This document shows, piece by piece, positions 3,475 through 52,047 of a DNA stretch of 64,000 bases. Below the pieces are notes generated by a model, which was given only the letters and a program-made list of their open reading frames with translations, ran no database searches and was not told the origin of the DNA. Numbering within the stretch: the first letter of the stretch is position 1; the number at the start of each line of letters is the position of its first letter. The stretch comes from Candidatus Micrarchaeota archaeon (GTDB lineage Archaea; Micrarchaeota; Micrarchaeia; Norongarragalinales; Norongarragalinaceae). The DNA lies in contig CAZOKY010000001.1 in assembly GCA_964580705.1 (NCBI GenBank), forward strand, positions 1,224-65,223. Reading direction: 5' to 3'. The translations under genes were made by a program, and so were the position numbers.

Positions 3475-4185
3475 TCAAGCGCGGCGTGAAAAACGAGGTT
3501 CTAGTTTCTTGTGAATTCCAGCCGTGATAGCGTCCGAAATTTCTTCAGACATGAAACCGTGCTTTTCAGACGCCGCCGCGTCAGCCACGTGCAAGTAGCT
3601 ATTCAAAAGGTAACGCGTTTCCTCGCGTTCGCGGCGGTTTGCACCGCGCGCTTCATCGATAGCGCGTTCAATCGATAGCCGGTGCCGTTCGAATTCAGTC
3701 ACTTTTTTAAAAATCGCTGGAACTTCGACGTCAAACTGCTTTTCGTCCTCGCTCGGTTTTACTAAAACCGGTTGCCGGAGATAAAAATTAAGCAGCGTCG
3801 GCAACGCCGTGCTGCGCAACTTGGTTGCGCGTCCAGTTAAAGAATGCAGAAAACCAAAAGCGCGAACTAGAAAACCCGGTTTCAACAGCGTGTTGTGATA
3901 GGAAATTATTAGAGCATCAGGATTTTTAGCGCGCAAACCGTCGAAAAACGCTTGGTTTTCAGGGAAAAACCGAGCGTTTAGTCGAAACGGAAACTGCACA
4001 AACGGTTTTTTAGTAGTCAAGCCAAGCAGCCTGTGGTGAACGCTTAACTCTCTTGGAAAAGTTACGAAAGATACTTTGTGCCCCAGCGCTTCAAGCTTCT
4101 CGCTAACGCGTTTAGCAATCGGCGCCGCAGTCAGTTCGTTCGGGTCTTCGTCAACAACAAAGATGGCTTCATCCAAGCTATTCAC
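3475..4185 (-). CDS. hypothetical protein, translationally coupled to argS
   Basis: Track ORF 3475..4308 overlaps argS by 127 nt. An in-frame GTG at 4185 overlaps the argS TGA (GTGA), giving VNSLDEAIFVVDED... No family recognised. Confidence 0.45.
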   Translation of the reverse strand: MNSLDEAIFVVDEDPNELTAAPIAKRVSEKLEALGHKVSFVTFPRELSVHHRLLGLTTKKPFVQFPFRLNARFFPENQAFFDGLRAKNPDALIISYHNTLLKPGFLVRAFGFLHSLTGRATKLRSTALPTLLNFYLRQPVLVKPSEDEKQFDVEVPAIFKKVTEFERHRLSIERAIDEARGANRREREETRYLLNSYLHVADAAASEKHGFMSEEISDAITAGIHKKLEPRFSRRA

Positions 4186-16110: not shown

Positions 16111-17304
16111 TTACGGTTGAATCCACTCGATCTCGTAATACTCGTACTTGCTTCCAGGAAGCTCAATGCGCTTCACGCGATAATACGTGATGCTCGTCTC
16201 GCGGTCGCAAATCGCGAGCACGAGATCGAGCCCCAACTGCTTCGCCTGTTCGAGCCCGCGCGCCAGCTCCGCGCCGCCCAACTCTTCTTCCTCGCTGAGC
16301 GCCAGCATTACGAACTTCGGTTTCCCAGTCCGCGGGTTCTCAGGCACGCTGCCCGCGCTCTCGCGGTGGTAAAGCAGGAAGTCGAGTTCGCTCGCTTCGA
16401 CGCGCTTCGCGCCGGGAATCGCGAGAATAAACGTCTTGCGCACGCCGTGCGCCACGCGAATCGCCCGCGCCCACTCGCTGATGAGCATTCTTGCTTCGCG
16501 CGGGAAAACGTGGATGACGTGCTTCGAGTGCATCCACTCGCCTTCGCCGAGCCCCGGGCTCGCGCCCGGGAAGTACAAGCGAAAGTGAGTGCCGAACTTG
16601 AAACCCGTCTTGACGACGAACCCACGCAAGCGCCAGTCTTCGTAAACCGAGTAAAGCGCGGGAAAATCGCTGCGGCGCGCAGTCGCGTCCTTAACGAGTT
16701 TTTTCTCTTTAACGTTGAGCACGAAACAAGCGTGCTTCATGAGGAACAACGTCTCGTAAGCGTCGAGTTTGAGAAAGCGACCGTGCTTCTTCGCCTTGTA
16801 CGTCCCCCACTGGCCGAACCAATTCTTTTCATACAACGCCTGCCCCTCGACGTCGTCATCGATGATCGACATCAAATCGTCGCTGAAGAACAAGCCTTTA
16901 GCCTTCACTTCGGGAAAATCGCTCGGTTTGCACGGGTACTTCTGTAACGGGCTGCGTCCGTAATTCGCGTTCGCATCCGCTTCATCGATGGGGCGCGCGA
17001 TGAGCCCGCGGTCACGCCAATCCTTGAAGCAAAAATAACGGGCGAGGAATTTCGGGTTGTTTTGAAACTTCGCCGCGACGGCATTAAACGAAAGCTCCTT
17101 TTTTTTCGCGTGGCACTTCGCGTTCCGCACGTCGATTAAATAAAGCGCTTCCTCGGGCGTCAACTCGATTTGAGTTTTTTTCCCGTCAAATTCGGTGCCG
17201 AAAAACGAGCGGTCGAGAGCTTGAACGGTGATTAAGTCGGTTACGACGACGTGTTCATCGCCTTTCTTGCCGACGACGCTTAATTCAGTAGTCACGAACT
17301 TCAT
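16111..17304 (-). CDS. endA: tRNA-splicing endonuclease EndA, long single-chain multi-unit form
   Basis: Catalytic-domain signature (YEDWRLRGFVVKTGFKFGTHFRLY ... HSKHVIHV) and an N-terminal domain (EALYLID ... LARYFCFKDWRDRG). At 397 aa it is roughly twice the alpha4 size, as in three-unit epsilon2-type enzymes. Confidence 0.8.
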   Translation of the reverse strand: MKFVTTELSVVGKKGDEHVVVTDLITVQALDRSFFGTEFDGKKTQIELTPEEALYLIDVRNAKCHAKKKELSFNAVAAKFQNNPKFLARYFCFKDWRDRGLIARPIDEADANANYGRSPLQKYPCKPSDFPEVKAKGLFFSDDLMSIIDDDVEGQALYEKNWFGQWGTYKAKKHGRFLKLDAYETLFLMKHACFVLNVKEKKLVKDATARRSDFPALYSVYEDWRLRGFVVKTGFKFGTHFRLYFPGASPGLGEGEWMHSKHVIHVFPREARMLISEWARAIRVAHGVRKTFILAIPGAKRVEASELDFLLYHRESAGSVPENPRTGKPKFVMLALSEEEELGGAELARGLEQAKQLGLDLVLAICDRETSITYYRVKRIELPGSKYEYYEIEWIQP

Positions 17305-48609: not shown

Positions 48610-48694
48610 TGCAGGGGGAGGGATTCGAACCCCCGAACCCCTAAGGGACAGGCACCTCAAGCCTGCACGTTTGACCAGGCTTCGCTACCCCTGC
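48610..48694 (-). tRNA. tRNA-Leu (GAG), class II with a long variable arm
   Basis: Hand-folded: GCAGGGG acceptor, 3-bp D-stem, anticodon arm CAGGC-UUGAGGU-GCCUG, variable arm UCCCUUAGGGGUUC, T-arm GGGGG-UUCGAAU-CCCUC. Confidence 0.8.
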
Positions 48695-51822: not shown

Positions 51823-51860
51823 GAATCACTCTGAACGCTGAATAACGAATAAAAGCAAGC

Positions 51861-52047
51861 GCCGGGACTGAGAAATCCGCGACTCTCGCGATCGTTCTGT
51901 TTTTCGATCTTTTTTCGAGAGAAGTTTCGAACTCAGGAGGCCCTTACGGGCCACAAGCTCCCCGGAAATCAAGACGGATACGCCTGTTTTTCAGGCAGTC
52001 CGAAAAAAGTTTTCCAGGCCTGCGCATTACCGCTCTGCCATCCCGGC
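51861..52047 (-). tRNA. putative tRNA-Ser (GGA) interrupted by up to three introns (anticodon loop, variable region, T-loop)
   Basis: Hand-folded. 5' GCCGGGA-UG-GCAG-AGCGGUA-AUGC-G-CAGGC-CUGGAA[14 nt]U-GCCUG. Variable-arm hairpin GGCCC-GUAA-GGGCC. T-stem halves CUGAG..CUCAG separated by ~50 nt. 3' acceptor UCCCGGC. A palindromic TATA-like gcgctttaaaaaagcg is centred ~29 nt upstream of the 5' end. Confidence 0.35.

Follow-up and report, generated by a model that had tools for sequence, protein, structure and literature searches.

The closest described counterpart of the system analysed here is that of ARMAN-2 (Candidatus Micrarchaeum acidiphilum; Fujishima et al. 2011, PMC3239211), where 56% of the tRNA genes are disrupted and several tRNAs carry more than one intron. 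Its tRNA splicing endonuclease, the three-unit epsilon2 EndA (PDB 4FZ2, PMC3488258), exhibits a broad specificity and cleaves in vitro both a strict BHB at position 37/38 and a relaxed motif at position 59/60 (PMC3239211). In the pre-tRNA-Cys(GCA) and pre-tRNA-Pro(GGG) of this organism, the 37/38 intron has the form hBHBh' and the 59/60 intron employs the T stem as its outer helix (PMC3239211). Thermoproteales and other archaea with an (alpha-beta)2 EndA possess tRNA genes with up to three introns (PMC3239211, PMC4033280). With respect to gene order, an archaeal cluster S13-S4-S11-rpoD-tRNA(Leu)-L18e has been described, without a tRNA-Ser (PMC10833476).

The window, by which we mean the whole stretch of 64,000 nucleotides that was analysed, belongs to the same phylum as ARMAN-2 and encodes the same three-unit EndA as a single ORF of 397 aa, identified by its match to PDB 4FZ2 and by Pfam:

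16111 to 17304, minus strand: EndA, three-unit (epsilon2-type) tRNA splicing endonuclease

Residues 17-397 of this protein align with residues 12-387 of the 395 residues of ARMAN-2 EndA (PDB 4FZ2; E = 3.6e-122), and both the tRNA_int_endo and the tRNA_int_endo_N domains of Pfam are present. The long EndA that the original prediction had pointed out in the window is thus a full-length homologue of the ARMAN-2 enzyme, and the other intron-bearing tRNAs mentioned with it are likewise real. The window therefore encodes the endonuclease type that is able to cut non-canonical positions and that, by analogy with ARMAN-2, is expected to cut both introns of the tRNA-Ser(GGA) gene proposed here.

The gap between Cbf5 and S13 contains only short, overlapping ORFs of 46-61 aa. 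The original prediction had found no gene model there and had read the gap as a tRNA-Ser(GGA) split by three introns; an identical public metagenome contig indeed has no called gene between Cbf5 and S13, and every sequence piece that had been listed was located on the minus strand at the positions given for it. Taken together, positions 52047-51860 of the minus strand hold all sequence pieces of a class-II tRNA-Ser(GGA). The acceptor strands are GCCGGGA (52047-52041) and UCCCGGC (51867-51861), the latter being followed by G73 at 51860. The D stem has 3 bp (GCA/UGC) and the loop GAGCGGUAA, and the anticodon-stem 5' strand CAGGC leads into the loop CUGGAA with the anticodon GGA. The variable hairpin GGCCC-GUAA-GGGCC occupies 51952-51939, and the T stem is formed by CUGAG (51936-51932), which UUCGAA adjoins, and CUCAG (51872-51868). 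A GCCUG is also found at 51996-51992, 14 nt beyond the anticodon loop.

Default ARAGORN on the window missed this locus, as did Rfam at the gathering threshold, where the tRNA model yields 18.5 bits against a cutoff of 29. In both gathering and E-value modes, and for the window as well as the gap, Rfam otherwise returned only the noise matches LPR10, ceN70 and SCARNA20. The 187-nt precursor folds with a z of -3.06, none of 200 shuffles being as good, and the acceptor stem closes the MFE structure. We assign the pieces to three exons and two introns, on the basis of the BHB scan, ARAGORN, alignment of homologous loci and a covariance model of the relatives (R1):

52047 to 52012, minus strand: exon 1 (G1-A37, 36 nt), with the acceptor 5' strand, the D arm, CAGGC and CUGGAA; aligned by R1 as model positions 1-36
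52011 to 51960, minus strand: intron 1 (52 nt) at the canonical position 37/38, from the BHB scan and ARAGORN -i
51959 to 51926, minus strand: exon 2 (A38-A59, 34 nt), with GCUUG, U44, GGCCC-GUAA-GGGCC, UC, CUGAG and UUCGAA; from the BHB scan, ARAGORN, alignment and R1
51925 to 51874, minus strand: intron 2 (52 nt) at 59/60, a non-canonical site in the T-loop, from the BHB scan and local MFE
51873 to 51860, minus strand: exon 3 (U60-G73, 14 nt), with U60, CUCAG, UCCCGGC and the discriminator G73; from sequence, ARAGORN and R1

CCA is not encoded after G73. Removal of both introns gives a product of 84 nt, GCCGGGAUGGCAGAGCGGUAAUGCGCAGGCCUGGAAAGCUUGUGGCCCGUAAGGGCCUCCUGAGUUCGAAUCUCAGUCCCGGCG, on which ARAGORN calls an 85-base tRNA-Ser(GGA). 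The spliced sequence shows the features of a class-II tRNA-Ser, i.e. a 5-bp variable arm with a GUAA loop, the anticodon GGA and G73, and the positions engaged in tertiary structure are present as U8, A14, the D-loop GG, U33, the T-loop UUCGAAU and G53-C61. The G73 discriminator is an identity element for archaeal SerRS. Judging from its sequence, we consider it very likely that 52047-51860 of the minus strand is a functional tRNA-Ser(GGA) gene of Micrarchaeota (DPANN) with two 52-nt introns, and its product is probably the decoder of UCC/UCU codons.

The splice sites were located by scanning for a BHB motif composed of an outer helix, a 3-nt bulge, a 4-bp helix and a second 3-nt bulge, with the cuts placed two nucleotides into the bulges. 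Intron 1 can be drawn as such a 3-4-3 motif with a 7-bp outer helix (CGCAGGC/GCUUGUG), a central helix CUGG/CCGG and the bulges AA^A and GG^A. Its 5' site after A37 (52012) pairs with a 3' site before 51959, which gives the 52-nt intron and makes GCUUG positions 39-43. In the local MFE structure, the outer helix retains its 7 bp and the 3' bulge its 3 nt, and the central helix gains three A-U pairs. The 5' bulge of intron 1 is therefore disfavoured, and the 37/38 junction seems to be of the relaxed type. Among 29 homologous loci, the motif is strict in 10, and 2-3 of the 4 central pairs are formed in the remaining 19 when a rigid 3-4-3 frame is imposed. ARAGORN -i selected the same 52-nt 37/38 intron unaided when the T-loop intron alone had been removed beforehand.

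Intron 2 is enclosed by a strict 3-4-3 BHB, in which the T stem CUGAG/CUCAG serves as the 5-bp outer helix, with UUCG/CGGA as the central helix, AA^A and UU^U as the bulges, and CUCUCG...CGAGAG forming an inner hairpin. The scan places the 5' site after A59 (51926) and the 3' site before 51873; the outer helix, a 3-nt bulge and the 4-bp helix are recovered in the local MFE structure, and the motif is strict in 23 of the 29 loci. A BHB motif is accordingly present at both junctions, strict at 59/60 and, at 37/38, drawable as strict and relaxed in the MFE structure. Since A38 before GCNNG and U60 before the T-stem 3' strand are invariant among the loci, while the bases after UGGA[A/G] and after UUCGAA vary, the intron positions are assigned as 37/38 and 59/60.

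All 29 loci have the same two-intron layout; their sources are metagenome contigs and genome bins with Micrarchaeota in the title, and a metagenome scan with a 5'-exon pattern contributed 20 of them. When identical ones are counted once, they amount to 25 precursors and 17 spliced sequences, and 16 of the latter were aligned. The exon-finding pattern fixed some exon letters, none of them at covarying positions. In the shared layout, exon 1 ends in UGGA[A/G] and is followed by an intron, A-GCNNG-UG with the variable hairpin, UUCGAA, a second intron, and U with the T-stem 3' strand, the acceptor strand and G. The introns range from 28 to 97 nt (intron 1) and from 15 to 160 nt (intron 2), and no intron-less relative was found among the 29 loci. 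S13 lies directly downstream in nearly all of them. The Cbf5 protein of the window places it in Candidatus Micrarchaeota, the nearest named bin having 83% identity, and in several of the loci reached through Cbf5 the tRNA gene likewise lies downstream of it.

For the 24 cloverleaf pairs of the 16 distinct spliced sequences, all 384 cells are paired (100%), and changes on both sides are seen at 10 of the 24 pairs, across all five helices. These values were attained by none of 500 shuffles, and in slid controls only 18-48% of cells are paired. The pair 29:41, which is G29-U41 in the window, occurs as CG (8), GU (4), AU (3) and UA (1). The exons are about 92% conserved, while the intron sequences and lengths diverge widely, a contrast characteristic of purifying selection that acts on the spliced product.

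R1 was built from the spliced sequences of the relatives only, with the window excluded. Run on the unspliced window, it gave 52047-51860 as the best match (72.3 bits, E = 4.2e-15, model positions 1-82), so that the locus scores over its full length in the nearest equivalent of the covariance-model check that had been proposed for the spliced sequence. GCUUG is aligned as positions 39-43, with two 53-nt skips, one in the anticodon loop and one in the T-loop. As judged by ARAGORN, the 24 pairs and R1, removal of the inserts restores a canonical cloverleaf. The central idea of the original prediction, a tRNA-Ser(GGA) interrupted by multiple introns of which one is non-canonical, is therefore upheld by ARAGORN, covariation and the R1 score.

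The number of introns is a different matter, for two were found, at 37/38 and 59/60, rather than three. In the three-intron arrangement, a 14-nt intron interrupts the anticodon loop, the anticodon-stem 3' half is GCCUG (51996-51992), an intron of 37-39 nt lies at 43-45 ahead of the variable arm, and the T-loop intron follows. A strict BHB can be drawn for the 14-nt excision, with a 5-bp outer helix CAGGC/GCCUG, a central helix CUGG/UCGG and a 3' site before 51997, and it is present as a 13-nt version in the relative L002; the resulting anticodon stem is entirely Watson-Crick, ARAGORN accepts three-intron products too, and the D-loop of one homologous gene (L007) seems to hold a third insert. 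However, the BHB scan detected no motif of any quality that would join 43-45 to GGCCC, either in the window or in L002, so that, of the three proposed junctions, those of the 14-nt insert and the T-loop intron have a BHB and that of the middle intron has none. Strict BHBs with a 5-bp outer helix also arise by chance elsewhere in the same 198 nt. Moreover, AGCUUGU would become intron, yet every homologue has A-GCNNG-UG, in covariation with positions 27-31: throughout the other 24 distinct complete precursors, the UG and variable arm come immediately after the anticodon-stem 3' half, whose bases change together with those of the 5' half. In none of these 24 does the intron contain a stretch complementary to the anticodon-stem 5' half; among complete genes the window is the only one in which it does, and the truncated, near-identical L002 has the same GCCUG. 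R1 likewise aligns GCUUG, not GCCUG. In both the MFE and the centroid folds of the window, GCCUG pairs instead with a CAGGC inside intron 1, forming the following element:

52002 to 51975, minus strand: hairpin within intron 1, CGGA-CU-GCCUG-AAAAA-CAGGC-GUA-UCCG, from the MFE folds and RNAalifold

This hairpin is also predicted by RNAalifold from nine homologous introns, 6 of its 10 pairs having changed in a compensatory manner. In L003 and L004, which rank next in closeness to the window, the homologous element reads GCCCG...CGGGU; it forms a hairpin of the intron itself and is unable to pair with the CACGC of their anticodon stem. Because of this element, the covariation of the intron hairpin and the restriction of the complement to the window and L002, we assign GCCUG to the intron and reject the three-intron model, which we regard as exceedingly improbable; the true 3' half is GCUUG, directly before the variable arm, and one 52-nt intron stands where two had been proposed. 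A related possibility is that the gene has two introns and that the 14-nt BHB is cut as well, as an alternative or decoy 3' site leading to a dead-end product or an extra intron fragment, which might serve regulation or quality control. This mini-BHB is strict and kept in the window and L002, the two closest sequences, and the broad specificity of epsilon2 EndA (PMC3239211) is compatible with such cleavage; but it is absent from all other lineages, and given how closely these two are related (83% Cbf5 identity), its retention means little. As the folds hold GCCUG in the intron hairpin, unpaired with the exon, additional cutting at this site seems very unlikely. The suspicion that the locus is a decaying tRNA pseudogene, or some other small RNA resembling a tRNA by chance (e.g. 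an H/ACA guide by cbf5), could draw on the failure of the standard tRNA finders, the sub-threshold Rfam tRNA score and the adjoining cbf5. It is the least probable of these alternatives, because not one of the 24 cloverleaf pairs is broken in any of the 16 distinct sequences, among which compensatory changes occur, the exons are conserved beside divergent introns, the promoter box is conserved, and no Rfam family besides tRNA scores meaningfully.

Apart from the question of intron number, intron 1 of the two-intron gene displays further conserved elements. An oligo-U tract (T4-T7) follows shortly after the 5' splice site, as T6 at 52007-52002 in the window, and the intron hairpin has covarying stems on either side of an asymmetric internal loop that is itself conserved (UU/CU opposite G[U/C]A). 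The tract and the hairpin are kept in the otherwise fast-drifting intron 1 of most Micrarchaeota loci, among them the window, L003, L005, L027, L028, L030, L033, L034, L039, L041, L042 and L044. A T6 run is normally an archaeal termination signal. The module might cause internal pausing or termination, or serve as an Lsm-type site setting the output of tRNA-Ser or the S13 operon, and intron 1 might also outlast splicing as a stable RNA, excised or circular, that has a role of its own. That the 37/38 intron is more than a spacer, i.e. a protein-binding or regulatory module, nevertheless seems unlikely to us.

Some of the homologous loci deviate in their introns. In one subgroup (L006, L029, L031, L036, L037 and L040), the 59/60 intron is 100-160 nt long, and these long T-loop introns share the blocks CCCTTTT(T)CTT...AAGAAAAGGTC and CCCAAAAGAA, which form long hairpins; given these hairpins, the introns may encode an RNA. 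The orthologous tRNA-Ser(GGA) of L007 (JACRGE010000049.1, ~3848-4089) seems to have an extra insert of ~88 nt in the D-loop. It also has the 37/38 intron and a T-loop insert starting after UUC, so that three introns are apparent in this gene, inside which the contig ends.

The flanks of the tRNA-Ser(GGA) gene carry two elements that are relevant to its expression:

52081 to 52073, minus strand: TATA box TTTTTTAAA, starting 34 nt upstream of G1, within the palindrome GCTTTTTTAAAGC (52083-52071)
51858 to 51848, minus strand: T-rich trailer TTGCTTTTATT, a likely oligo-T termination signal

The palindrome is centred ~30 nt upstream of G1, in accordance with the TATA-like palindrome of the original prediction. 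Of the 25 distinct homologous loci, 20 have a TATA-like 8-mer whose first base lies between -35 and -31 (at -34 in the window); from its position, its conservation and the archaeal consensus, the box is presumably the archaeal promoter of the tRNA-Ser. Most homologous trailers also open with a T-rich run, e.g. CTTTT or TTTT. A scan for bacterial promoters and terminators gave nothing relevant in the gap, its consensus being bacterial and uninformative for an archaeon.

We propose the following course of processing. Transcription would probably start from the gene's own TATA box and yield a precursor of ~190 nt ending at the T-rich trailer. The precursor would fold such that the anticodon stem (intron 1) and the T stem (intron 2) become the outer helices of two BHB motifs, and the epsilon2-type EndA of the window would cut at 52012|52011, 51960|51959, 51926|51925 and 51874|51873. 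The exons would then be joined by an RNA ligase, the ends trimmed and CCA added afterwards, resulting in an 84-nt class-II tRNA-Ser(GGA) with G73 and a 5-bp variable arm. We infer transcription, cleavage at the predicted sites, ligation and aminoacylation, and take the biochemical steps from the homologous ARMAN-2 system.

The gene order in the window is Cbf5, tRNA-Ser and S13-S4-S11-RpoD, with a tRNA-Leu(GAG) at 48610-48694. These genes, including the tRNA-Leu, resemble the S13-S4-S11-rpoD-tRNA(Leu)-L18e cluster, from which the window differs in having a tRNA-Ser, and one that is split by introns. The order, together with the tRNA-Leu(GAG), suggests that a tRNA at the spot of the tRNA-Ser fits the conserved cluster. 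A tRNA-Ser gene presumably lies ahead of S13 in Haloarcula marismortui as well. In L003 and L004, which are bins of 80-82% Cbf5 identity, ~1 kb of other sequence separates Cbf5 from the tRNA-Ser/S13 unit. Therefore, the adjacency of Cbf5 and the tRNA is not fixed, whereas that of the tRNA and S13 is.

A second BRE/TATA-like box, CGAAGG-CTTTTTAAAGC (52197-52181, minus strand), is located between the Cbf5 stop (52231) and the tRNA-Ser TATA box. It opens an upstream element (52197-52084, minus strand) in which the box is followed by CTCTTTCGAG[G/A]G, a GC-rich hairpin, GGAAGC (52112-52107) and CTGCTTTTCG. Most Micrarchaeota loci have, ahead of the tRNA-Ser promoter, a TTTTTAAA box with GGA(A)GC or GGAGC 36-44 nt downstream, irrespective of which gene lies upstream. 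The upstream element has no Rfam match, RNAalifold detected no covariation on four close relatives, and no archaeal S13/S4 ribosomal leader is given in PMC7247131. A small RNA is one conceivable identity for the element, and a leader or attenuator belonging to the tRNA-Ser/S13 operon is another; as an undescribed leader or sRNA, it could act on the tRNA-Ser precursor or on the S13 operon.

Within this element, CGTTCTGCTTTTCG (52102-52089) is complementary at 13 of 14 positions to CGAAAAACAGAACG (51906-51893) in the loop of the intron 2 inner hairpin, a match attained by none of 200 shuffles. No comparable pairing between the upstream element and the intron was found in the other loci; since the pairing is confined to the window, it may be due to chance or be lineage-specific. 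Two further candidates were discarded. A BHB intron inside the upstream element would be strict in L003, L004 and L005 and relaxed in the window, but such matches are common by chance. An H/ACA or C/D sRNA beside cbf5 lacks both the boxes and Rfam support.

Two other tRNA genes of the window are interrupted at unusual positions. An unannotated tRNA-Ala(GGC) at 26262-26147 (minus strand) contains a 43-nt D-loop intron with a strict BHB, its 5' site after 26244 and its 3' site before 26200, and ARAGORN calls it as Ala once it is spliced in silico. It was missed by default ARAGORN and at the Rfam gathering threshold, with only a 21.8-bit match to the tmRNA clan. A tRNA-Val(GAC) at 26089-25980 (minus strand) has a non-canonical insert of ~40 nt in the variable region, for which many candidate splice sites exist; the Rfam tRNA model gives it 60.6 bits, and default ARAGORN missed it.

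Compared with the known systems, the tRNA-Ser(GGA) gene shares with the ARMAN-2 pre-tRNA-Cys(GCA) and pre-tRNA-Pro(GGG) the combination of a 37/38 and a 59/60 intron, the T stem being the outer helix of the latter. It differs in that another tRNA is split in another lineage, with a Cbf5 identity of at most 83% to the named Micrarchaeota bins. The 59/60 intron is 52 nt long here and enclosed by a strict BHB, whereas that of the tested ARMAN-2 tRNA-Cys has 13 nt and a relaxed hBH motif. Cleavage in ARMAN-2 has been shown in vitro (PMC3239211), while that of the present tRNA-Ser(GGA) precursor is predicted from its sequence. The multi-intron tRNAs of Thermoproteales are similar in having BHB introns at canonical and non-canonical positions of one gene, with native stems as the outer helices, and in keeping the intron positions among orthologues while the intron sequences drift. 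They differ in the endonuclease, which is an alpha-beta heterotetramer there and an epsilon2 homodimer here, in the phylum, and in the number of introns, which reaches three per gene there and is two here.

The tRNA-Ser(GGA) fills an annotation gap with a kind of gene that is known in DPANN and that default finders miss. Because both this gene and the tRNA-Ala(GGC) are missed by default, tRNA complements of DPANN bins would be under-counted unless multi-intron searches are made, and inferences on completeness or codon usage of such bins would be affected likewise. We found no earlier description of this particular gene, or of its two-intron layout being kept across many Micrarchaeota. The 37/38 and 59/60 layout is retained across a wide spread of this phylum, in step with the epsilon2 endonuclease, and its retention supports the known picture of co-evolution between tRNA introns and the splicing endonuclease, which it leaves unchanged.
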